A stretch of 43,624 bases of DNA from a virus. Lineage: Duplodnaviria; Heunggongvirae; Uroviricota; Caudoviricetes. Below the pieces are notes generated by a model that was given only the letters and a program-made list of their open reading frames with translations, was not told the origin of the DNA and ran no database searches. A program made the translations under genes and the position numbers. This document shows, one piece after another, positions 9,994-25,851 of the stretch; within the stretch, counting starts at the first letter, position 1; the number at the start of each line of letters is the position of its first letter. The stretch is from positions 1 through 43,624 of IMG/VR virus record IMGVR_UViG_2869924733_000007; one strand, 5' to 3'.

Positions 9994-10542
9994 TTATTTT
10001 AAAGAAAGTAATTGTTCCACAGTCATATTTTTAATTGCGCCCCGGTTAACAAGAGTCCATCCCTGTTTTTCCAGATAAAACCGGAAAGTCTCCAGGGTAC
10101 AGACCAGTGCGCCATCAGGAACGGTTTCGGTGAATTCGACATTGCCGAATTTGTCGAAGTGAACAACCAGAGTGCGACCATCACCCGGAATCATCTTGTC
10201 AGCAGGTGGGGTGTTATTCTGGCGCAGTTCGGCCTCCATGCGGTCGAACTCAGCAATGTAGGCTTCCTTGAATGCGGCGGCTTTTTTGCCAGTGAAGCCC
10301 ATCACCAGGAAAACGAAGCCGTTTTTGGTGATTTGGTACATTGGGAGTTTGCGCCCGGTTGAGTCGGTGTATTCGCTCGCCTCAAAATTGAGGGCAGTAA
10401 ATTTATCTGAGCATTCAATATTTGCGATGGCACGTAACACATTGTCGTGTCGTTTGTGGAAGAACTCTGCAACCGCAACAGACGTAGTGACAGCGCGACC
10501 GTTTTCTACGGTTACACAAGGGTGAGAAAGGGTAGTAGCCAT
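9994..10542 (-). CDS. rha: Rha-family phage regulatory (antirepressor-like) protein
   Basis: MATTLSHPCVTVENGRAVTTSVAVAEFFHKRHDNVLRAIANI... matches the Rha domain signature; start moved to the ATG at 10542 (GGAGG upstream) because the longer ORF would read through the upstream terminator. Confidence 0.6.
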   Translation of the reverse strand: MATTLSHPCVTVENGRAVTTSVAVAEFFHKRHDNVLRAIANIECSDKFTALNFEASEYTDSTGRKLPMYQITKNGFVFLVMGFTGKKAAAFKEAYIAEFDRMEAELRQNNTPPADKMIPGDGRTLVVHFDKFGNVEFTETVPDGALVCTLETFRFYLEKQGWTLVNRGAIKNMTVEQLLSLK

Positions 10543-10747
10543 GATGGCAGCCTCCGCGATGAATTTGATTAACTCACCACCGGAGGTAGCAATCTCATGG
10601 GTGGTGAGACGTACAGGGTTGCTACAACCGGTCATCACGGAACCCGGCCAGTCTTGCGACTGCCCCGCACGCCCCACCATAATTTGAATGTGGCTGTGCA
10701 TTACGCATAAAAAAACCGCCTGAGCGCGGTTATGCGCCGTGAATGAC
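10543..10747 (-). promoter_or_regulatory. Conserved structured leader with intrinsic terminator upstream of rha (copy A)
   Basis: Terminator accgcgctcaggcggttttttt (10708..10732 on the minus strand), then a conserved tcaccacc...ggtggtga stem; about 75 percent identical to the region upstream of the second antirepressor-like gene. Confidence 0.45.
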
Positions 10748-11231
10748 TTCGGGGTAGCAATCCCGGCACCCGTTTTATGAGGTGCAGGTGCACTATAATT
10801 CCACCCGTTCTGGTTTTCAATAGCTACATTCAACATTTTCTCTTTCCTTTCATCACCGAAGTGAACTTTGTTGATGCGGTGCCTGGTGCCTCCAGGTGAC
10901 GTTAACCAGTTAATAATTAACGCCGGAATAAGGGATTTTCCTTACTGTTTTAACTGTTCCGCGTGCGCTGAGCCGCATTCACCGCATCACAAAATTCACT
11001 TTAAAAAGGGCGGACATCAGCCAGCAATTAAACCGATGCCGCCAACTGGTACTTCACACAGCAATGTCGTTATTTACAACCGGAGGCGCACTCCCACCAT
11101 TTAAATTTAACAGACAAGACCGACTCTTTATGGATACCGGAAATGCGCCTTCGTGTTGTGCCCGGTTTTATTTCACCACCTCCGGGCTTTGGTGGTATCT
11201 TTACTGAAGTTCTCGCACAACCAGTAAGGAA

Positions 11232-11709: not shown

Positions 11710-11865
11710 TTACTCACCTGAATGTCTTCCCAACCAACGACGTGCGCCAGCTTCGGTTTTAAACGTTTTGCTTTTGGTATACGTCATGGCGGTGAATGTG
11801 CCGTCCTGGTTGGGGAACACGCCGTACACCAGAGATTCGTTGTTGCCAAGATCGATAGTATTCAT
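11710..11865 (-). CDS. Small Rac-prophage-like protein (YdaG-like, tentative)
   Basis: MNTIDLGNNESLVYGVFPNQDGTFTAMTYTKSKTFKTEAGARRWLGRHSGE resembles recalled YdaG of Rac. Confidence 0.45.
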   Translation of the reverse strand: MNTIDLGNNESLVYGVFPNQDGTFTAMTYTKSKTFKTEAGARRWLGRHSGE

Positions 11866-11944
11866 GTTGACCCCATTTCCCCTTAACGCCGGGGTAGCGG
11901 AACTGTTTGCTGAGAACACCGTGCGGTGTCTTGATGAATGAAAT

Positions 11945-12000
11945 TTAGAATAACCTAAGGTGGGTGGTCAAGATTTTTATGTAGAAAAACCTAAGTTTTT
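11945..12000. promoter_or_regulatory. Operator-like CCTAAG repeats downstream of the repressor gene
   Basis: aacctaaggtgg at 11952..11963 and aacctaagtttt at 11988..11999; same core as the sites in the repressor/cro-like intergenic region. Confidence 0.3.
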
Positions 12001-12067
12001 TGATGTAAAAAACACAAGTGTTTGAAAGTTTGTGCTTTTTATTACAGGGTGTGGAGAAAAAAGGGGA

Positions 12068-12475
12068 TTATTTGTTTGCGCTTCTTTTGCGAGCTTTGAG
12101 TAGTTCTTCAAAAAGTTTGTTGAAATTTTCAACTCGAGCACGCATCTCTGACAACAGGGCCTTTTGCTCTGACTCAGGCAGTGCGTCGAACAGTTGAAGT
12201 AACTCTTTTTGATCTTCTGTCAGAATGGCTGGCTGATTATCCGGGATCGGTTCGCCTGGTTGTTTATCTTCATCCCCAAAAAGAAGCCAAGTCGGTGAGC
12301 ACTGAAGCGCTTGGCTCAGTGCGAATAATCTTTTCCCCGCCGGCTGTGTTTCATCTCTTTCCCATTGAGAAATTGTTACGTGAGCCACTTTGACCAGCTT
12401 ACCTAATGCGGCCTGAGACAGTTTTAATTTTTTACGCCTATGTAAGAGGCGAGCACCGAAGGTTTCGTTTTTCAT
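12068..12475 (-). CDS. racR: Prophage repressor, XRE-family HTH (RacR-like)
   Basis: 135 aa; HTH LKLSQAALGKLVKVAHVTISQWERDE; divergent from a cro-like gene across a 76-bp operator region. Confidence 0.7.
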   Translation of the reverse strand: MKNETFGARLLHRRKKLKLSQAALGKLVKVAHVTISQWERDETQPAGKRLFALSQALQCSPTWLLFGDEDKQPGEPIPDNQPAILTEDQKELLQLFDALPESEQKALLSEMRARVENFNKLFEELLKARKRSANK

Positions 12476-12551
12476 ATTAGGGAATTCTAATTTTTCTTGA
12501 CTTAGGTTTCTCTACGATCTGGTTTTCTTAGGAAAATCTAAGGAGCTCGAT
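12476..12551. promoter_or_regulatory. Divergent promoter/operator region between the repressor and the cro-like gene
   Basis: TTGACT at 12497..12502; CTTAGG at 12501..12506; palindrome CTTAGGAAAATCTAAGG at 12527..12543 overlapping the ydaS-like RBS. Confidence 0.4.
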
Positions 12552-12779
12552 ATGTTGAAAATTGATGCTATAGCGTTTTTTGGCAGCAAAACAAAGCTTG
12601 CCAATGCCGCAGGAGTTAGGCTGGCAAGCATTGCTGCATGGGGGGAACTGGTTCCTGAAGGTCGCGCGATGCGCCTGCAAGAGGCATCTGGCGGGGAACT
12701 TCAGTACGACCCCAAAGTTTATGACGAATATCGTAAGGCAAAACGACCTGGGAAGGTGATTCATGAAAATCAGGCATGA
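12552..12779 (+). CDS. ydaS: Cro-like HTH protein (YdaS-like)
   Basis: 75 aa, AAGGAG RBS, position and orientation of cro relative to the repressor. Confidence 0.6.
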   Translation: MLKIDAIAFFGSKTKLANAAGVRLASIAAWGELVPEGRAMRLQEASGGELQYDPKVYDEYRKAKRPGKVIHENQA

Positions 12780-13185
12780 GCACATCGAATCAGTGCTGTT
12801 AGCCCTGGCAGCCGAAAAAGGGCAGGCGTGGGTCGCTAACGCAATTACTGAAGAATATCTGCGGCAGGGGGGCGGCGAATTGTCTCTGGTACCAGGCAAG
12901 GACTGGAACAATCAGCAGAATATCTATCACCGTTGGTTGAAAGGTGAAACGAAAGCGCAAAGGGAAAAAATTCAGAAACTGATCCCTGCGGTTCTGGCAA
13001 TTCTTCCGCGTGAGCTGCGTCACCGACTCTGTATCTTCGATACCCTGGAACGCCGTGCATTACTGGCGGCGCAGGAAGCGTTGAGTACGGCAATTGATGC
13101 GCATGATGATGCTGTCCAGGCCGTTTACCGGAAAGCACATTTCAGCGGTGGTGGGTCGCCCGGCGATTCTGTCGTAGTGCATTGA
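12763..13185 (+). CDS. ydaT: YdaT-like protein (cII-position protein of Rac-like prophages)
   Basis: 140 aa, overlaps the end of the ydaS-like gene, same order as Rac racR-ydaS-ydaT. Confidence 0.5.
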   Translation: MKIRHEHIESVLLALAAEKGQAWVANAITEEYLRQGGGELSLVPGKDWNNQQNIYHRWLKGETKAQREKIQKLIPAVLAILPRELRHRLCIFDTLERRALLAAQEALSTAIDAHDDAVQAVYRKAHFSGGGSPGDSVVVH

Positions 13186-13262
13186 TTGAAATTAATCGTG
13201 CCGGATTGTTTTGTTCGGTATCAGTTAAATGTAACGCTGCGAGCGTTACAAGGTGAAAACAA

Positions 13263-14045
13263 ATGGCTTCAAACTGGATAAAGCTCGAGGTTATTACGCC
13301 GGATAAGCCGGAAATATTCAGGCTTGCTGAGATTCTGAATATTGATCCAGATGCCGCATTAGGGAAGGTTATTCGCTTCTGGGCATGGGCGGATCAACAA
13401 ATGATAGACGGTAATGCAGATTGTAACGCTCGCGGCGTTACAAAAAGTGCAATAGATCGCATCACTTTTATGTCTGGTTTTGCTGATGCGTTAATTCAGG
13501 TTGGATGGCTGGTCGAAAATGACGGTGGGCTTTCTCTACCTAACTTTGAACGTCATAACGGAAAAAGCTCTAAAAAACGGGCGGTTACAAACGAGCGAGT
13601 AACAAAAATACGCGAACTGAAACGAAAAGGTAACGTTGCCAGCGTTACACAAACGGATCAAAAAGCGTTACCAGAGGAAGAGGAAGATCTAAATACTGAT
13701 CTCCCCCTAAATCCCCCTCGCCAAAAACGAGCGTCTAAAAAATTCGAGCCGGAGGCTATTGAGCTGCCCGATTGGTTGCCGGAAACACTCTGGCATGAGT
13801 GGGTCCGGTTCAGACAGGCATTGCGAAAACCGATTCGAACGGAGCAGGGCGCTAACGGGGCGATACGGGAACTGGAAAAATTCCGTCAGCAGGGTTTTAC
13901 ACCTGAGCAGGTGATTCGACACAGCATCGCCAATGAATACCAGGGCCTGTTCGCGCCGAAAGGTGTTCGGCCTGAGACGTTGCTCCGACAGGTTAACACC
14001 GTCTCGTTGCCGGACAGTGCGATCCCGCCAGGCTTCAGGGGGTAA
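13263..14045 (+). CDS. Phage replication initiation/organiser protein (YdaU-like)
   Basis: 260 aa, immediately upstream of the DnaC-like loader, as in Rac ydaU-ydaV. Confidence 0.55.
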   Translation: MASNWIKLEVITPDKPEIFRLAEILNIDPDAALGKVIRFWAWADQQMIDGNADCNARGVTKSAIDRITFMSGFADALIQVGWLVENDGGLSLPNFERHNGKSSKKRAVTNERVTKIRELKRKGNVASVTQTDQKALPEEEEDLNTDLPLNPPRQKRASKKFEPEAIELPDWLPETLWHEWVRFRQALRKPIRTEQGANGAIRELEKFRQQGFTPEQVIRHSIANEYQGLFAPKGVRPETLLRQVNTVSLPDSAIPPGFRG

Positions 14046-14051
14046 CGGACC

Positions 14052-14798
14052 ATGAAAAATATTGCGACAGGCGGCGTTCTGGAACGCATCCGCCGACTGA
14101 CCCCGCCACATGTAACCGCCCCATTCAGAACGGTAGCGGAGTGGCGCGAGTGGCAACTTGCTGAAGGCCAGAAACGTAGCGAGGAGATCAACCGCCTGAA
14201 TCGCCAGTTGCGGGTGGAAAAAATTCTGAATCGCTCAGGCATCCAGCCGTTGCACCGTAAATGCTCGTTTGCGAATTACCAGGTGCAGAACGACGGCCAG
14301 CGATACGCGTTAAGCCAGGCGAAATCCATCGCCGATGAACTGATGACCGGGTGTACAAATTTTGCGTTCAGCGGAAAACCTGGTACCGGGAAGAATCACT
14401 TAGCGGCAGCTATCGGGAATCGCCTGCTGAAAGACGGTCAGACAGTGATTGTGGTTACCGTGGCTGATGTTATGAGCGCCCTGCACGCCAGCTATGACGA
14501 CGGGCAGTCAGGCGAAAAATTTTTGCGGGAGCTGTGCGAAGTGGATCTGCTGGTTCTTGATGAAATTGGCATTCAGCGCGAGACGAAAAACGAGCAGGTG
14601 GTGCTGCACCAGATTGTTGATCGCCGGACAGCGTCGATGCGCAGCGTGGGGATGCTGACAAACCTGAACTATGAGGTGATGAAAACATTGCTCGGCGAGC
14701 GGGTGATGGATCGCATGGTCATGAACGGCGGGCGCTGGGTGAATTTTAACTGGGAGAGCTGGCGTCCGAATGTTAGCCATTCGAGGGTTGTTAAGTAG
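14052..14798 (+). CDS. DnaC-like replicative helicase loader (IstB/DnaC AAA+ ATPase)
   Basis: Walker A GKPGTGKNHLAAAIG and Walker B LLVLDEIG. Confidence 0.7.
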   Translation: MKNIATGGVLERIRRLTPPHVTAPFRTVAEWREWQLAEGQKRSEEINRLNRQLRVEKILNRSGIQPLHRKCSFANYQVQNDGQRYALSQAKSIADELMTGCTNFAFSGKPGTGKNHLAAAIGNRLLKDGQTVIVVTVADVMSALHASYDDGQSGEKFLRELCEVDLLVLDEIGIQRETKNEQVVLHQIVDRRTASMRSVGMLTNLNYEVMKTLLGERVMDRMVMNGGRWVNFNWESWRPNVSHSRVVK

Positions 14799-15153: not shown

Positions 15154-15972
15154 TTAAGCAGCCATCTGATGATATTGTTCCCTGAAGGCTGCCGGGGAGA
15201 TATTCCCCAGACGAGAGTGACGACGCTGACGATTGTAGAAAATCTCAATGTATTCCCGTATTACTGAGATGGCTTCATCCCGGTTATTAAAACGATAGTG
15301 GCTCAGGCTCTCATTTTTCAGCGTTCCCCAGAAGCTTTCCATCGGAGCGTTGTCGTAACAGTTACCTTTACGCGACATTGATGTTTTCAGACCAAACTGC
15401 TCCTGTATGACCCGGTAATCGTATGCGCAGTACTGTGAACCTCGATCAGAGTGGTGGATTAGCCCGGCAGGTGGGCGCTGGCTCCTGAGCGCCATAAACA
15501 GGGCTTTACCTGTCAGCTCTTTTGTCATGCGCTCTCCCATGGCGTAGCCGACAATTTCGCACGTATAAACATCTTTGATGCCAGCGAGGTACAACCATCC
15601 CTCCTGTGTGGCAACATACGTCAGGTCCGCCACCCAGACCTGATTTGGTGCTGTAGGAGCGAACGTCTGGTTCAGCAGATTTGGCGCAACTGGCAGATTG
15701 TGGTTCGGGTTCGTAGTCGCTCTGAACTTGCGTTTCTGCTTACAGCGTAGCCTTAGCTCCTTACGAAGACGTGCCAGTCGGTCACGACCAACGATGATGC
15801 CATTCTCTGCCAGCTCCGTCTGGAGCCGCCGGGTTCCATATGTTTCGCGAGTGCGGATATGTGCCACCTTAATCTCCAGTTTTAGCCGCTCATCACTTTG
15901 TTTTCTGTCTGAGGGTTCATGCTGTACCCAGTTGTAATAACCGCTCCTGGATACACCAAATACCTGACACAT
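15154..15972 (-). CDS. IS600 OrfB
   Basis: 272-aa ORF, one substitution relative to copy 1 (R to W at position 15). Confidence 0.8.
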   Translation of the reverse strand: MCQVFGVSRSGYYNWVQHEPSDRKQSDERLKLEIKVAHIRTRETYGTRRLQTELAENGIIVGRDRLARLRKELRLRCKQKRKFRATTNPNHNLPVAPNLLNQTFAPTAPNQVWVADLTYVATQEGWLYLAGIKDVYTCEIVGYAMGERMTKELTGKALFMALRSQRPPAGLIHHSDRGSQYCAYDYRVIQEQFGLKTSMSRKGNCYDNAPMESFWGTLKNESLSHYRFNNRDEAISVIREYIEIFYNRQRRHSRLGNISPAAFREQYHQMAA

Positions 15973-16049
15973 CGCTTCAATGGGAAATTGTTGTCGCCAT
16001 TGTTCGATTAACGCGTATTTTTCAGCGACTCCTGTGCAAAATACGCTGT

Positions 16050-17270
16050 TGTAGATTCAATCTGTCAATGCAACACCCCTTTCAATTATCTCTTTCGGTG
16101 TTTTGAACTTCAGTGTCTTTCTCGGTCTGTTGTTTAGCTGAGCAGCAACCAGATCTAGTTCATGTTGAGTATATTGGGCAAGACATGTCTTTTTAGGAAA
16201 GTACTGCCGAATTAGCCCATTTGTGTTCTCATTTGTTCCCCGCTGCCAAGGACTCTGAGGATCGCAGAAGTAAACTTTAACGCCGGTGCTGACAGTAAAT
16301 TCTAGATGTCTGGCCAGTTCCATTCCTCTGTCCCATGTCAGTGATTTTCTGAGTTCTGACGGTAAACTCAGGAATTTGTCGGTAAGAGCCTGATTTACTG
16401 AGACAGAATCTTTGCCCCTGAGTCTAAGGATGATCGTATAACGTGATTTTCGGTCTACAAGTGTGGCTATATGAGAGTTTTTTGTACCTGAGACTAAATC
16501 GCCCTCCCAATGCCCCAGAGAGCGTCTGTTATCGATATTTCGGGAACGTTCGTGAATTGGTGTTCCGTTCACTATGTTAATCGTACCTCTTTCGCCTTTG
16601 CGGGTATGACGCCTGCCATGGCGAAGGCTATGCGACCGTCGCAGATGCTGTATATTCAGGTGGTGTAGCGCTTCACGGCTACGAAAGTACAGCGTTTTAT
16701 AAATTGTCTCAGGTGATATTCGCAGCGTTTTTTGACGTGGTTTTGTTCGCCTTAACCATCCTGATATTTGCTCTGGAGACCATTTCATCTCCAGCTTTTC
16801 CAGAACAAGCTTTCGCAATGGTAAATTTTGATCCAGTAAGCACGGTTTTGGCCTTTTCGCCATTCTGTTGGCTCGGTTATTAGCATCAACAGCTTTGTAA
16901 TAGCGTCTGCCCCGATTACGCTGAACTTCACGTGAGATCGTCGAAGGACTGCGATTCAGCGCAGTAGCTATCGCACGAATGCTCATTTTGGCTGACAAAC
17001 CAGCTCGTATCTCCTCGCGCTCAGACAGTGTCAGGTGAGCTACAGCCCGCTTACGCTCATGGGGTTTTATGCCGCCAGTATCCCTTAACATAGTGAAGAT
17101 CGTTCCGGGTTTTGAACCCAGGATATTCGCTATTTCACTGAAGCCTGTTCCGTTCTTCCATAGTTCAAAAACAGAGGCTTTTTCCTCTGCTGTAAATGTT
17201 CGTCTCATTCAAAAAACCTCCGCAACCCCATGTTTTCACATAACTGTTGCGTTGACCAATTGAATCTACA
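16050..17270 (-). mobile_element. IS30 nested in IS600 (copy 2)
   Basis: Same offset inside the composite as copy 1. Confidence 0.8.
16057..17208 (-). CDS. IS30 transposase
   Basis: 383-aa ORF identical to copy 1. Confidence 0.9.
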   Translation of the reverse strand: MRRTFTAEEKASVFELWKNGTGFSEIANILGSKPGTIFTMLRDTGGIKPHERKRAVAHLTLSEREEIRAGLSAKMSIRAIATALNRSPSTISREVQRNRGRRYYKAVDANNRANRMAKRPKPCLLDQNLPLRKLVLEKLEMKWSPEQISGWLRRTKPRQKTLRISPETIYKTLYFRSREALHHLNIQHLRRSHSLRHGRRHTRKGERGTINIVNGTPIHERSRNIDNRRSLGHWEGDLVSGTKNSHIATLVDRKSRYTIILRLRGKDSVSVNQALTDKFLSLPSELRKSLTWDRGMELARHLEFTVSTGVKVYFCDPQSPWQRGTNENTNGLIRQYFPKKTCLAQYTQHELDLVAAQLNNRPRKTLKFKTPKEIIERGVALTD

Positions 17271-17533
17271 GTTGCTTTTTTTAATATATCTCGCTCAAGG
17301 CGAGCTTCATTTAACGCCTTACGCAGTTGCAGAATTTCAGATTCCAGTTCAGCCACCGTGCGGGAACCAGGAGTACCGAGTCCTTTTCTGGCGGCGGTAA
17401 CCCATTGTCCTAAAGTGCCTTCAGGAAGGGATAATCGGGAAGCGCCTTCACTGATCGAAAGTTGATTTTCAAGAACCGTTCTGACAGCTTCGGCTTTGAA
17501 CTCTTTAGAGTAACGTTGGGTTTTTCTGCTCAT
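17271..17533 (-). CDS. IS600 OrfA (3' end displaced by IS30)
   Basis: Identical to copy 1 OrfA. Confidence 0.8.
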
Positions 17534-20256: not shown

Positions 20257-21409
20257 AATAGCTGCGCGGAATAGTAGATCACTTTGAGGGAACTTAGCCC
20301 GGATTGTGCGATCTGATCAATCGCCAAATCAAAACAAATCACCAACCGGACTGAGCAATGCCGATCATAGCACCAATTTCCCGTGACGAACGACGCCTGA
20401 TGCAGAAAGCCATCCATAAAACACACGATAAAAATTATGCCCGCAGACTGACTGCCATGCTGATGCTGCACCGGGGCGACCGTGTCAGCGACGTTGCCAG
20501 AACGCTCTGCTGCGCCCGTTCCTCTGTTGGACGCTGGATTAACTGGTTCACGCAGTCGGGTGTTGAGGGACTGAAATCATTACCTGCCGGGCGTGCCCGT
20601 CGCTGGCCGTTTGAGCATATCTGCACACTGTTACGTGAGCTGGTAAAACATTCTCCCGGCGACTTTGTCTACCAGCGTTCACGCTGGAGTACAGAACTGC
20701 TGGCAATAAAAATCAATGAGATAACCGGTTGCCAGTTAAATGCCGGAACCGTTCGCCGCTGGTTGCCGTCTGCGGGGATTGTGTGGCGAAGGGCTGCGCC
20801 AACTCTGCGTATCCGTGACCCGCATAAAGATGAAAAGATGGCAGCAATCCATAAAGCACTGGACGAATGCAGCGCAGAGCATCCGGTCTTTTATGAAGAT
20901 GAAGTGGATATCCATCTTCATCCCAAAATCGGTGCGGACTGGCAACTGCGCGGACAGCAAAAACGGGTGGTCACGCCGGGACAGAATGAAAAATATTATC
21001 TGGCCGGAGCGCTGCACAGCGGGACAGGTAAAGTCAGCTATGTGGGCGGCAACAGCAAAAGTTCGGCGCTGTTCATCAGCCTGCTGAAGCGGCTTAAAGC
21101 GACATACCGTCGGGCGAAAACCATCACGCTGATCGTGGACAACTACATTATCCACAAAAGCCGGGAAACACAGAGCTGGCTGAAGGAGAACCCGAAGTTC
21201 AGGGGCATTTATCAGCCGGTTTACTCGCCATGGGTGAATCATGTTGAACGGCTATGGCAGGCACTTCACGACACAATAACGCGTAATCATCAGTGCCGCT
21301 CAATGTGGCAACTGTTGAAAAAAGTTCGCCATTTTATGGAAACCGTCAGCCCATTCCCCGGAGGCAAACATGGACTGGCAAAAGTGTAGCGGTATTAAGC
21401 GCAGCTATT
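20257..21409 (+). mobile_element. IS630 copy 2 (1153 bp) at CTAG with TA duplication
   Basis: TA at 20255..20256 and 21410..21411; same terminal repeats as copy 1. Confidence 0.85.
20358..21389 (+). CDS. IS630 transposase
   Basis: 343-aa ORF, one substitution relative to copy 1. Confidence 0.9.
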   Translation: MPIIAPISRDERRLMQKAIHKTHDKNYARRLTAMLMLHRGDRVSDVARTLCCARSSVGRWINWFTQSGVEGLKSLPAGRARRWPFEHICTLLRELVKHSPGDFVYQRSRWSTELLAIKINEITGCQLNAGTVRRWLPSAGIVWRRAAPTLRIRDPHKDEKMAAIHKALDECSAEHPVFYEDEVDIHLHPKIGADWQLRGQQKRVVTPGQNEKYYLAGALHSGTGKVSYVGGNSKSSALFISLLKRLKATYRRAKTITLIVDNYIIHKSRETQSWLKENPKFRGIYQPVYSPWVNHVERLWQALHDTITRNHQCRSMWQLLKKVRHFMETVSPFPGGKHGLAKV

Positions 21410-21961: not shown

Positions 21962-22137
21962 GTTAAATCCTTCGTTGTTGGGGAATATTGTTAGTTTAGC
22001 CTGTAGTGGCTGTTGACGACAACGTTAATCCGGGGCTATATTCCTCACGCGCCAGCAAAATCTGGCGTCGGGATTGGCGTCCCGGATATCGAAATGAGGT
22101 GTACTGGCAATAGCGGACACTACCATTTGTTCTTTTT

Positions 22138-22956
22138 TTAAGCAGCCATCTGATGATATTGTTCCCTGAAGGCTGCCGGGGAGATATTCCCCAGACGAGA
22201 GTGACGACGCTGACGATTGTAGAAAATCTCAATGTATTCCCGTATTACTGAGATGGCTTCATCCCGGTTATTAAAACGATAGTGGCTCAGGCTCTCATTT
22301 TTCAGCGTTCCCCAGAAGCTTTCCATCGGAGCGTTGTCGTAACAGTTACCTTTACGCGACATTGATGTTTTCAGACCAAACTGCTCCTGTATGACCCGGT
22401 AATCGTATGCGCAGTACTGTGAACCTCGATCAGAGTGGTGGATTAGCCCGGCAGGTGGGCGCTGGCTCCTGAGCGCCATAAACAGGGCTTTACCTGTCAG
22501 CTCTTTTGTCATGCGCTCTCCCATGGCGTAGCCGACAATTTCGCACGTATAAACATCTTTGATGCCAGCGAGGTACAACCATCCCTCCTGTGTGGCAACA
22601 TACGTCAGGTCCGCCACCCAGACCTGATTTGGTGCTGTAGGAGCGAACGTCTGGTTCAGCAGATTTGGCGCAACTGGCAGATTGTGGTTCGGGTTCGTAG
22701 TCGCTCTGAACTTGCGTTTCTGCTTACAGCGTAGCCTTAGCTCCTTACGAAGACGTGCCAGTCGGTCACGACCAACGATGATGCCATTCTCTGCCAGCTC
22801 CGTCTGGAGCCGCCGGGTTCCATATGTTTCGCGAGTGCGGATATGGGCCACCTTAATCTCCAGTTTTAGCCGCTCATCACTTTGTTTTCTGTCTGAGGGT
22901 TCATGCTGTACCCGGTTGTAATAACCGCTCCTGGATACACCAAATACCTGACACAT
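22138..22956 (-). CDS. IS600 OrfB
   Basis: 272-aa ORF identical to copy 1. Confidence 0.8.
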   Translation of the reverse strand: MCQVFGVSRSGYYNRVQHEPSDRKQSDERLKLEIKVAHIRTRETYGTRRLQTELAENGIIVGRDRLARLRKELRLRCKQKRKFRATTNPNHNLPVAPNLLNQTFAPTAPNQVWVADLTYVATQEGWLYLAGIKDVYTCEIVGYAMGERMTKELTGKALFMALRSQRPPAGLIHHSDRGSQYCAYDYRVIQEQFGLKTSMSRKGNCYDNAPMESFWGTLKNESLSHYRFNNRDEAISVIREYIEIFYNRQRRHSRLGNISPAAFREQYHQMAA

Positions 22957-23033
22957 CGCTTCAATGGGAAATTGTTGTCGCCATTGTTCGATTAACGCGT
23001 ATTTTTCAGCGACTCCTGTGCAAAATACGCTGT

Positions 23034-24254
23034 TGTAGATTCAATCTGTCAATGCAACACCCCTTTCAATTATCTCTTTCGGTGTTTTGAACTTCAGTGT
23101 CTTTCTCGGTCTGTTGTTTAGCTGAGCAGCAACCAGATCTAGTTCATGTTGAGTATATTGGGCAAGACATGTCTTTTTAGGAAAGTACTGCCGAATTAGC
23201 CCATTTGTGTTCTCATTTGTTCCCCGCTGCCAAGGACTCTGAGGATCGCAGAAGTAAACTTTAACGCCGGTGCTGACAGTAAATTCTAGATGTCTGGCCA
23301 GTTCCATTCCTCTGTCCCATGTCAGTGATTTTCTGAGTTCTGACGGTAAACTCAGGAATTTGTCGGTAAGAGCCTGATTTACTGAGACAGAATCTTTGCC
23401 CCTGAGTCTAAGGATGATCGTATAACGTGATTTTCGGTCTACAAGTGTGGCTATATGAGAGTTTTTTGTACCTGAGACTAAATCGCCCTCCCAATGCCCC
23501 AGAGAGCGTCTGTTATCGATATTTCGGGAACGTTCGTGAATTGGTGTTCCGTTCACTATGTTAATCGTACCTCTTTCGCCTTTGCGGGTATGACGCCTGC
23601 CATGGCGAAGGCTATGCGACCGTCGCAGATGCTGTATATTCAGGTGGTGTAGCGCTTCACGGCTACGAAAGTACAGCGTTTTATAAATTGTCTCAGGTGA
23701 TATTCGCAGCGTTTTTTGACGTGGTTTTGTTCGCCTTAACCATCCTGATATTTGCTCTGGAGACCATTTCATCTCCAGCTTTTCCAGAACAAGCTTTCGC
23801 AATGGTAAATTTTGATCCAGTAAGCACGGTTTTGGCCTTTTCGCCATTCTGTTGGCTCGGTTATTAGCATCAACAGCTTTGTAATAGCGTCTGCCCCGAT
23901 TACGCTGAACTTCACGTGAGATCGTCGAAGGACTGCGATTCAGCGCAGTAGCTATCGCACGAATGCTCATTTTGGCTGACAAACCAGCTCGTATCTCCTC
24001 GCGCTCAGACAGTGTCAGGTGAGCTACAGCCCGCTTACGCTCATGGGGTTTTATGCCGCCAGTATCCCTTAACATAGTGAAGATCGTTCCGGGTTTTGAA
24101 CCCAGGATATTCGCTATTTCACTGAAGCCTGTTCCGTTCTTCCATAGTTCAAAAACAGAGGCTTTTTCCTCTGCTGTAAATGTTCGTCTCATTCAAAAAA
24201 CCTCCGCAACCCCATGTTTTCACATAACTGTTGCGTTGACCAATTGAATCTACA
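23034..24254 (-). mobile_element. IS30 nested in IS600 (copy 3)
   Basis: Same offset as the other copies. Confidence 0.8.
23041..24192 (-). CDS. IS30 transposase
   Basis: 383-aa ORF identical to the other copies. Confidence 0.9.
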   Translation of the reverse strand: MRRTFTAEEKASVFELWKNGTGFSEIANILGSKPGTIFTMLRDTGGIKPHERKRAVAHLTLSEREEIRAGLSAKMSIRAIATALNRSPSTISREVQRNRGRRYYKAVDANNRANRMAKRPKPCLLDQNLPLRKLVLEKLEMKWSPEQISGWLRRTKPRQKTLRISPETIYKTLYFRSREALHHLNIQHLRRSHSLRHGRRHTRKGERGTINIVNGTPIHERSRNIDNRRSLGHWEGDLVSGTKNSHIATLVDRKSRYTIILRLRGKDSVSVNQALTDKFLSLPSELRKSLTWDRGMELARHLEFTVSTGVKVYFCDPQSPWQRGTNENTNGLIRQYFPKKTCLAQYTQHELDLVAAQLNNRPRKTLKFKTPKEIIERGVALTD

Positions 24255-24517
24255 GTTGCTTTTTTTAATATATCTCGCTCAAGGCGAGCTTCATTTAACG
24301 CCTTACGCAGTTGCAGAATTTCAGATTCCAGTTCAGCCACCGTGCGGGAACCAGGAGTACCGAGTCCTTTTCTGGCGGCGGTAACCCATTGTCCTAAAGT
24401 GCCTTCAGGAAGGGATAATCGGGAAGCGCCTTCACTGATCGAAAGTTGATTTTCAAGAACCGTTCTGACAGCTTCGGCTTTGAACTCTTTAGAGTAACGT
24501 TGGGTTTTTCTGCTCAT
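24255..24517 (-). CDS. IS600 OrfA (3' end displaced by IS30)
   Basis: Identical to copy 1 OrfA. Confidence 0.8.
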
Positions 24518-24584: not shown

Positions 24585-24775
24585 CGGTGCATAACCGCGC
24601 TGGCGGTTTTTTTATGCGCTAAGCACAGTCACATTCGCGATTTATGGTGGGCTGTGTGGGGGAGTTGAGAGACTCGCCGGATGTTTCGACCGGTTACGCC
24701 AACCCTGCACAGTTCACCACCCAGCGATTGGCGTCGCAGGTGGTGAGTTAAAAACCATCGAAACGCGAGGTCGTT
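24585..24775 (+). promoter_or_regulatory. Conserved structured leader with intrinsic terminator (24591..24614) upstream of the second antirepressor-like gene (copy B)
   Basis: gcataaccgcgctggcggtttttttatgcg plus conserved tcaccacc...ggtggtgagttaa stem; homologous to 10543..10747 in inverted orientation. Confidence 0.45.
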
Positions 24776-25540: not shown

Positions 25541-25617
25541 GGCCCTTTAGCTCAGTTGGTCAGAGCGAGCGACTCATAATCGCCAGGTCGCTGGTTCAAG
25601 TCCAGCAAGGGCCACCA
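25541..25617 (+). tRNA. tRNA with CAT anticodon, Ile2 (lysidine)-like
   Basis: Cloverleaf: acceptor ggccctt/aagggcc, T-arm gctgg-ttcaagt-ccagc, anticodon loop ctCATaa, 3' CCA; resembles recalled ileX/ileY. Confidence 0.7.
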
Positions 25618-25618
25618 A

Positions 25619-25695
25619 CCACCACTAGCTCATCCGGATAGAGCATCAACCTTCTAAGTTGACGGTGCGAGGTTCGAGTCCTCGGTGGTGGGCCA
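25619..25695 (+). tRNA. tRNA-Arg (anticodon TCT)
   Basis: Acceptor ccaccac/gtggtgg, anticodon stem tcaac/gttga with loop ctTCTaa, T-arm cgagg-ttcgagt-cctcg, 3' CCA. Confidence 0.65.
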
Positions 25696-25697
25696 GC

Positions 25698-25773
<76 letters not shown>

Positions 25774-25776
25774 TAT

Positions 25777-25851
<75 letters not shown>

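Follow-up and report, generated by a model that had tools for sequence, protein, structure and literature searches.

Genes and repeats at the locus

The subject of this analysis is a 607-bp region (positions 11,945 to 12,551) of the virus record IMGVR_UViG_2869924733_000007 (Caudoviricetes), the whole 43,624-nt stretch of which is referred to below as the window. The region contains a leftward repressor gene, the approach to a divergent cro-like gene and, on both sides of the repressor gene, copies of an inverted repeat that are very probably operators of an immunity switch of the type known from the DicA/DicC pair of the Escherichia coli prophage Qin. The coordinates of the genes, predicted operators and predicted promoters are collected in Table 1.

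The repressor matched the NCBIfam model of DicA (NF007257) over its full length (residues 1–135) with a score of 237.3 bits, at a cut-off of 101, and was 62% identical to DicA of E. coli K-12. The only Pfam families found in it were those of helix-turn-helix (HTH) domains (HTH_3); neither a self-cleavage domain of the LexA/S24 type nor a CI-type C-terminal domain was detected by Pfam in its 135 residues. In a phmmer search of PDB, it matched the N-terminal domain of P22 C2 (1adr, 2r1j; E = 1e-21) and 434 Cro (E = 2.5e-4). The product of the cro-like gene matched the DicC model (NF007282) with 158.3 bits, at a cut-off of 130, was 75% identical to K-12 DicC, and was recognized by Pfam as P22_Cro (3e-13), with P22 Cro (1rzs) as its match in PDB.

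Five copies of a long inverted repeat form two mirror-image clusters

The first-pass annotation of this DNA had drawn attention to a 6-bp core around the repressor gene, and we found all four of its copies in the letters: CCTAAG on the + strand at 11954–11959 and 11990–11995, and CTTAGG (CCTAAG on the − strand) at 12501–12506 and 12527–12532. The whole window contains five copies of this hexamer, as compared with 13.5 expected, and four of the five lie within the 607-bp region. Four copies within 607 bp appeared in 6 of 1000 dinucleotide-preserving shuffles. However, at least four copies within some 607-bp span were reached by 260 of the 2063 strand-collapsed 6-mers of the window, among which CCTAAG alone had 80% or more of its copies gathered in one cluster. 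The hexamer count is therefore a weak statistic, and the argument rests on a 14-bp pattern.

The hexamers are parts of an inverted repeat with the core TTAG-N6-CTAA, or in its fuller form CTTAGG-N4-TCTAAG. Exact copies of the core lie at 11945–11958, 12477–12490 and 12528–12541, with no further exact copy in the window, and copies with one mismatch lie at 11981–11994 and 12502–12515. None of 1000 shuffles brought together, within 607 bp, either three exact copies or five copies with one mismatch or none. All five sites, read as 18-mers, fit xCTTAGG-N4-TCTAAGx, in which CTTAGG is the strong half and the other half is weaker. A position weight matrix (PWM) made from the five sites gave them scores of 18.4 to 21.4 bits, and did not exceed 10.6 bits in the rest of the window. 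The best match elsewhere (39734–39751, 10.6 bits) is inside a 571-aa open reading frame (ORF) and was judged to be due to chance.

Two details of the earlier description had to be changed. The site at 12476–12491, beside the repressor start codon, had been overlooked. In addition, the site next to the cro-like gene, which stands as a site, had been described as the palindrome CTTAGGAAAATCTAAGG, but it really consists of the arms CTTAG (12527–12531) and CTAAG (12538–12542) separated by a 6-nt spacer.

The strong half, CTTAGG, is on the + strand in the three right-hand sites and on the − strand in the two left-hand ones, so that the clusters are mirror images of each other about the repressor gene; in both, this half is upstream relative to lytic transcription. 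The three right-hand sites, with centre-to-centre distances of 25 and 26 bp, all lie in the 76-bp divergent region between the repressor gene and the cro-like gene. The centres of the two left-hand sites, OL1 and OL2, are 36 bp apart, and an inverted-repeat search found OL2 to be 94% complementary to the middle right-hand site.

Table 1. Predicted operators, promoters and genes of the locus (positions in the window).
Feature	Position	Strand	Sequence or basis
OL1, predicted left operator 1	11944–11959	−	TTTAGAATAACCTAAG; − strand reading CTTAGGTTATTCTAAA; exact core; PWM 21.1 bits
OL2, predicted left operator 2	11980–11995	−	TGTAGAAAAACCTAAG; one mismatch to TTAG-N6-CTAA
Predicted right operator nearest the repressor gene (equivalent of Qin Oa, lambda OR3)	12476–12491	+	ATTAGGGAATTCTAAT; exact core
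Predicted middle right operator (equivalent of Qin Om, lambda OR2)	12501–12516	+	CTTAGGTTTCTCTACG; one mismatch; PWM 20.0 bits
Predicted right operator nearest the cro-like gene (equivalent of Qin Oc, lambda OR1)	12527–12542	+	CTTAGGAAAATCTAAG; exact core; PWM 21.4 bits (top score)
Putative rightward promoter, PR/dicCp-like	12497–12525	+	−35 TTGACT 12497–12502; 17-nt spacer; −10 position TGGTTT 12520–12525
Putative leftward promoter, PL/dicBp-like	11942–11971	−	−35 TTGACC 11971–11966; 18-nt spacer; −10 TAAATT 11947–11942; consensus scan
A/U-rich hairpin separating the repressor stop codon from the left operators	12006–12041	−	Inverted repeat with 12-nt arms, 92% complementary
Repressor gene, DicA family (135 aa)	12068–12475	−	N-terminal HTH as in P22 c2; without S24 peptidase domain
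cro-like gene, DicC family (75 aa)	12552–12779	+	ATG at 12552
ydaT (CII-like)	12763–13185	+	Pfam YdaT_toxin; 94% identity to K-12 Rac YdaT; context, outside the operator set
ydfA-like gene (DUF1391), first in the leftward (PL/dicBp-like) operon	11710–11865	−	Pfam DUF1391 8.7e-28

The sites overlap the predicted promoters of the switch

The −35-like hexamer TTGACT that had been noticed next to the palindrome at the cro-like ribosome-binding site was found there, and it is nearly invariant across 14 aligned loci. The middle right operator overlaps this −35 and the spacer of the putative rightward promoter, and the operator nearest the cro-like gene lies directly 3' of the −10 position, overlapping the presumed transcript start and the ribosome-binding site (AAGGAG, 12540–12545). 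The aligned −10 hexamer is TATCTT in K-12, TAATCT in locus L010, and TAGTTT in loci L002 and L009; in the window it is TGGTTT, with G instead of A as the second base. The window differs from L009, its closest relative (99.7% identity over 901 bp), at three positions, and all three are in regulatory intergenic DNA. They are G for A at 12521, which changes the rightward −10 from TAGTTT to TGGTTT, T for C at 12526, which flanks the right operator closest to the cro-like gene, and T for C at 11965, which adjoins the leftward −35. As L002 (93.6% identity) has A and C at positions 12521 and 12526, the bases of the window are derived at both. Over 12450–12600, no genome among the 751 complete E. coli genomes with this allele reached 99% identity to the window; the best, which include the genome of L009, were 98.7% identical, with two mismatches. 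Judged by the letters of its −10, the lytic promoter of the window may be a promoter-down allele.

The cluster 3' of the repressor gene, which had been proposed as a second operator cluster, does exist, but it appears to be an ordinary operator set of a leftward promoter; it overlaps the sequence TTGACC-N18-TAAATT. OL1 covers parts of the spacer and the −10 of this promoter, and OL2 is directly upstream of its −35. In the alignment, a GGTCAAG block is conserved at this point, in K-12 Qin as well as in other DicA loci, and a promoter function is assigned to the sequence by analogy to dicBp (PMC10448788).

The third right-hand site, that beside the repressor gene, shares bases with a −10-like hexamer, TAGAAT (− strand, 12489–12484), which is located 7–9 nt before the repressor ATG at 12475 and is represented by TAGCAT or TAGTAT in relatives. 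There is no Shine-Dalgarno sequence for the repressor gene within 12473–12491. This arrangement suggests that the repressor gene is transcribed from a PRM-like promoter giving a near-leaderless mRNA, as are lambda cI and paaR2 (PMC8630535). On the other side of the gene, the A/U-rich hairpin at 12006–12041 has a predicted RNA folding energy of −9.6 kcal/mol (z = −2.4) and may serve to end the transcript of the repressor gene. A sequence at about 12003–12018, which we considered as a candidate for a further left operator, belongs to this hairpin and was rejected.

Half-sites are conserved in homologous loci and change together with the recognition helix

The earlier annotation had named conservation in homologous immunity regions as a way to check the sites, and the sites passed. 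We compared the window with L009, L002, L003 and L004 (the last two about 70% identical), the K-12 Qin locus (L001, 68%), the locus of a Klebsiella phage (L006), and with a further 20 loci of other species that were retrieved through an alignment of the repressor. L002 represents PPompW, the ompW-site prophage of Shiga-toxin-producing E. coli, including O157:H7. In loci of Escherichia, Enterobacter, Citrobacter, the Klebsiella phage, Yersinia and Rahnella, the TTAG/CTAA half-sites and the TTGACT hexamer were kept, while the 6-bp spacers were variable. Half-sites were conserved at the operator nearest the repressor gene, which is the best-conserved site across the family, at the operator nearest the cro-like gene, and at both left-hand sites. 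Of 13 aligned loci, 12 kept OL1 in its place, the spacer being variable, and the position of OL2 together with the 36-bp spacing was conserved in L002, L004, L009 and L010. The middle right operator could be recognized only in the subgroup to which the window belongs (L009; L002 with one mismatch; L006 and L010 with two) and was degenerate in Qin-type and L004-type loci.

Twelve loci have repressors with xHV(T/S)(I/V)SQWE as the recognition helix. In these loci, the exact motif was counted 28 times in 2.5 kb of intergenic DNA flanking the repressor gene, and once in 29.7 kb outside it. For sites with up to one mismatch in the same loci, the enrichment corresponded to a Fisher p of about 3e-33, a value that overstates independence, as several of the compared loci are interrelated. 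In eight loci with other helices (SGSSISLWES, SHATISLWES, SSVSVFKWEN and others), the motif was found at most once, even with one mismatch allowed, and different palindromes, such as TTGAGAAAACTCAA, were present at the same positions. The recognition helix of the Cro-like protein varied in parallel with that of the repressor. Such co-variation of helix and operator is the pattern expected for the operators of heteroimmune relatives, and, as far as can be read from these sequences, it indicates at least four presumptive immunity specificities within the DicA protein family. The pairs observed beside that of the window were SGSSISLWES with TTGAGAAAACTCAA, S(H/Y)A(T/S)ISLWES with palindromes of the TTGTTAAATAAACTCAACAA type, and SSVSVFKWEN with ATAACT...AGTTAT; the alternative palindromes are located in the repressor-flanking intergenic DNA of L008, L007, L016–L022 and L027.

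The operator 12527–12542 aligns with Oc of K-12 Qin, which reads TTGTTAGTTATGACTAACAA in the K-12 sequence (L001). Oc has been described as a 20-bp inverted repeat, TTGTTAGTCATAACTAACAA (TTGTTAG-N6-CTAACAA), to which DicA binds in vivo; replacing one A by C (CTAA to CTCA) abolishes the binding (PMC3441716). Reading the K-12 sequence directly, we also found Oa, TTAGCTAATGCTAA, with a perfect TTAG-N6-CTAA core, and a TTAGCCATGACTAA site that adjoins a TTGACC −35 between dicA and ydfA. In core, spacing and position, these K-12 sites agree with those of the window. Peaks of DicC in chromatin immunoprecipitation sequencing (ChIP-seq) have been reported on either side of dicA, with the palindromic motif TT(A/C/T)G...C(G/A/T)AA (PMC11430063).

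The locus is a common one. Among 5426 complete E. coli genomes, the 901-bp query found a match in 2886, of which 751 contain the divergent region of this allele at 95–99% identity.

The repeats as probable operators of a Qin-type immunity switch

Taken together, these results make it very likely, as far as sequence comparison can tell, that the repeats serve a lambdoid immunity switch of the Qin (DicA/DicC) type as its operators, with one cluster to each side of the repressor gene. The predicted operators are a new allele of the DicA/DicC immunity region that has already been described. The operator interpretation of the first-pass annotation is in essence upheld by the aligned positions, the co-variation with the recognition helices and the core shared with Oc, but the 6-bp core on which it was built is too short, as the unit has 16–18 bp.

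Each predicted operator is a 16–18-bp pseudo-palindrome. We infer that two subunits of the DicA-like repressor would bind it as a dimer, using their helix-turn-helix of the P22 c2 type, and that the DicC-like Cro protein would compete for the same operators. Repressor at 12527–12542 and 12501–12516 would cover the rightward start site as well as the −35 and the spacer, keeping dicC–ydaT and the replication genes off. The site at 12476–12491 overlaps the presumed repressor promoter, and Cro, or an excess of repressor, bound there would lower the expression of the repressor gene. The left operators, 11944–11959 and 11980–11995, bracket or overlap the TTGACC-N18-TAAATT promoter and would repress it by occlusion; this promoter, which presumably corresponds to dicBp of Qin and PL/OL of lambda, would read into ydfA and the early-left operon. 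The whole would act as a P22/lambda-style bistable switch, in which the repressor occludes two lytic promoters and the Cro-like protein shuts the repressor promoter. As the repressor is devoid of a cleavage domain, induction would need an antirepressor or another route, such as Rem in Qin.

Besides the relatedness of the compared loci, several points weigh against this interpretation. The sequence-predicted Om and Oa were not bound by K-12 DicA in the same in vivo assay in which Oc was bound (PMC3441716), and since Oa was skipped despite its perfect core, the core alone is no guarantee of repressor binding. Some of the sites may serve mainly the Cro-like protein. A part of the conservation could stem from the signals that the sites overlap, namely the ribosome-binding site and the −10-like hexamer. 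Three left-hand sites are described for Qin and lambda, whereas only two are evident in the window: scanning 11900–12067 with up to one mismatch and with the PWM revealed no convincing third left-hand operator. Finally, the rightward −10, TGGTTT, is poor, and therefore the switch may be partly disabled in the window.

We regard it as very improbable that the repeats are products of chance in AT-rich promoter DNA, or mere promoter and ribosome-binding signals instead of protein sites. The ease with which hexamers reach four copies in 607 bp (260 of 2063) would agree with that, as would the overlap of one site with the ribosome-binding site and of another with a −10-like hexamer. However, the 14-bp pattern did not cluster in any of the shuffles, the exact motif is about 330-fold denser in the homologous intergenic regions than outside them, a different palindrome takes its place when the recognition helix changes, and L004 and K-12 keep the site even though their ribosome-binding site is separate from it. 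Even less credence can be given to the sites being operators of a Rac-type RacR/YdaS switch, in line with the first-pass annotation, which had labelled the two proteins RacR-like and YdaS-like. The downstream genes are indeed Rac-like, with YdaT 94% identical to that of K-12 Rac, and TTAGGC repeats as well as a TTAGGCGTCGCCTAA palindrome are present between racR and ydaS of K-12. Yet BLASTP of the repressor against RacR gave only a 5-residue match with E = 2.9, there was no BLASTP alignment of the Cro-like protein with YdaS, the score of the Cro-like protein with Pfam YdaS_toxin was 20.4 bits, under the cut-off of 30 bits, and both proteins passed the DicA and DicC models. The Rac-type switch is thus refuted at the level of sequence, and the labels had to be abandoned; they probably arose because the region is a mosaic of Qin-type and Rac-type modules.

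It is unlikely, in our opinion, that the true repressor operators are limited to the one beside the cro-like gene, with OL1 perhaps as a second, the rest being bound mainly by the DicC-like Cro protein or a host factor or decaying as remnants. That only Oc was bound by K-12 DicA in vivo (PMC3441716) speaks for such a limitation, as do the finding of the strongest DicC ChIP-seq peaks at these regions and the reported regulation of DicA targets by the host factor YjdC (both PMC11430063), and the degeneration of the middle site in most family members. On the other hand, the five sites in the subgroup of the window are mutually far more alike than those of K-12, with 18–21 bits each, and the middle site is retained in L002, L006 and L010, loci that have diverged elsewhere. 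Looping of the DNA by repressor bound at both clusters, which are about 0.55 kb apart, as in the lambda CI OL–OR complex, would tighten repression and would be an addition to the Qin-type switch; such looping, which the first-pass annotation had raised as a possibility, is in our view possible, though doubtful. Both clusters exist, are mirror images and stay at a constant distance, because they flank the 408-bp repressor gene; lambda CI and PaaR2 of CP-933P octamerise, with OL/OR-type arrangements for PaaR2 (PMC8630535); and in the DicA family the last 65 residues remain conserved between classes that differ in operator specificity, as would be expected of an oligomerisation module. In contrast, DicA-type repressors, with their 135 residues and HTH only, do not have the C-terminal domain of lambda CI, and local occlusion is enough to explain repression, because each cluster overlaps its own promoter. 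A broader proposal, which we think rather unlikely as a whole, is that the DicA family comprises short non-cleavable repressors with at least four operator classes, in which CTTAGG-N4-TCTAAG marks an immunity type distinct from the GTTAG...CTAAC of Qin, and that the clusters loop through a conserved C-terminal helical domain unrelated to that of lambda CI.

The analysis corrects the family label from RacR/YdaS to DicA/DicC and has little import beyond annotation: predicted operators and promoters were placed for a very common prophage switch, the same layout of which is already known from E. coli Qin. The co-variation of helix and operator across the family provides a table of presumptive immunity specificities, which could guide work on heteroimmunity or synthetic switches.

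Neighbouring genes and other features of the window

The ydfA-like gene to the left of the repressor gene was confirmed with K-12 YdfA in tblastn (92% identity over 51 aa, 11865–11713), and a homologous coding sequence is annotated in L009. On the other side, ydaT overlaps the cro-like gene and is followed by a 260-aa ORF, located where close relatives annotate a ydaU-type/replication protein, and by an ORF for an ATPase of the IstB/DnaC type that corresponds to ydaV. Judging by its genes, the stretch 12068–14798 is a mosaic of a Qin-type (DicA/DicC) immunity module and a Rac-type ydaT/replication module.

YdaT was considered as a binder of the repeats and rejected: its box, TTGATT-N6-AATCAA (PMC9986795), is different, and matches with at most two mismatches are at chance level in the window (5 found, 3.9 expected). 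Weak matches to the box, with two mismatches each, are at 12756–12773, at the dicC/ydaT junction, and at 13182–13199, just after the ydaT stop codon; the dicC/ydaT junction is where CP-933P has its main YdaT operator.

The leftward operon differs from that of Qin in its cargo. The window contains no Rfam match to DicF at the gathering score and no tblastn match to DicB, YdfB or YdfC; the missing dicF and dicB are a cargo difference, which leaves the operator/repressor module untouched. The segment 10862–11045 matches, with 82% DNA identity, a portion of what separates dicB from ydfC in K-12 Qin, and may have been left over from an early-left operon like that of Qin. Further along this operon, a regulatory gene of the Rha/Ash family (9994–10836, − strand) overlaps Rfam matches to the C4 antisense RNA and isrK (10597–10684 and 10709–10785, both − strand). 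C4 and isrK form a control module of the P1/P7 antirepressor type, and the Rha/Ash gene with this module is a candidate antirepressor route for the non-cleavable DicA-type repressor. A second C4/c4-a1b1/isrK set, interrupted by an insertion sequence (IS), is at 22–24.7 kb (22036–22138 and 24640–24724, both + strand).

The IS load is unusually high for 43.6 kb. A unit of about 2.4 kb with three ORFs is present five times (3903–6282 and 33944–36323 on the + strand; 15154–17533, 22138–24517 and 40380–42759 on the − strand). Its ORFs encode a 122-aa HTH_Tnp_1 protein, a 383-aa IS30-like transposase (HTH_38 and rve) and a 272-aa rve protein, and the unit looks like an IS30-type element nested in an element of the IS3 family, the two being repeated together. 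Another kind of IS is represented by two copies of a 343-aa DDE_3 transposase ORF (1726–2757, − strand; 20358–21389, + strand). Rfam matches at 463–607, 3324–3502, 40141–40323 and 25541–25848 comprise SraC/RyeA with SdsR/RyeB, RalA (the antitoxin small RNA (sRNA) of Rac RalR), CssrB ('chromosome-encoded Shigella sRNA B') and a four-tRNA cluster; together with the IS load, these matches suggest a Shigella-like host.

Comparison with known systems

Rac of K-12 resembles the locus in its overall layout, and YdaT (94%) and the replication genes that follow it in the window are of the Rac type. However, the repressor and the Cro-like protein of the window show no sequence relationship to RacR and YdaS, and the Rac intergenic repeats are of the TTAGGC type and have another architecture. 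The K-12 racR–ydaS intergenic region (L030, 1280–1345) has CATTAGGCA twice and the TTAGGCGTCGCCTAA palindrome, and the similarity of the TTAGG core is superficial.

CP-933P of E. coli O157:H7, with PaaR2, YdaS and YdaT, has OR-like and OL-like operator sets that were demonstrated by electrophoretic mobility shift assay and footprinting (PMC8630535). It shares with the window the lambdoid layout and the presence of a YdaT gene after the cro-like gene, but differs in the repressor (PaaR2), in the operator consensus (GTTTAGTAA inverted repeats) and in a toxin–antitoxin pair that follows the repressor gene. Operators made of GTTTAGTAA repeats were set aside as candidates, as they belong to PaaR2, a repressor of another family.

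With lambda, the window has in common a divergent repressor/cro pair with three operators in between, which overlap both promoters, that of the repressor being a predicted one, and a second, mirror-image operator set at the leftward promoter beyond the repressor gene. The operators of the two are unrelated in sequence, the distance between the clusters is about 0.55 kb in the window and 2.4 kb in lambda, and the repressor of the window is devoid of a CI-type C-terminal domain.

The operators of P22 have 18 bp, with 7-bp half-sites (ATTTAAG) and four central base pairs that are not contacted. The sites of the window can be read in the same 7-4-7 manner (aCTTAGG-N4-TCTAAGt), and the DNA-binding domain of the repressor and the Cro protein are homologous to those of P22. 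The half-sites differ, with TTAAG in P22 and TTAGG in the window, and P22 c2 has a C-terminal cleavage and oligomerisation domain, which the 135-aa repressor of the window has not.

The closest counterpart of the locus is that of Qin. Three operators between dicA and dicC and three between dicA and the dicB promoter, analogous to lambda OR/PR and OL/PL, have been described for Qin (PMC10448788, citing Bejar et al. 1988), and induction of the antirepressor type has been shown for Qin Rem (PMC10448788). Qin and the window are alike in the order of genes, with ydfA and the repressor gene both leftward and the cro-like gene divergent, in the TTGACT −35, in the TTAG-N6-CTAA core, which occupies equivalent places in the alignment to the left and to the right of the repressor gene, and in a short repressor without a RecA-cleavage domain. 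In contrast, the half-sites are flanked differently (C-TTAG...CTAA-G in the window, G-TTAG...CTAA-C in Qin), the middle operator is well formed in the window but degenerate in Qin, and the cro-like gene is followed by a Rac-type ydaT/ydaU/ydaV module in the window and by a ydfX remnant in Qin. The recognition helices of the repressors, AHVTISQWERDE in the window and SHVSVSQWERGD in K-12, differ as well, and therefore the immunity specificity of the window may differ from that of Qin.

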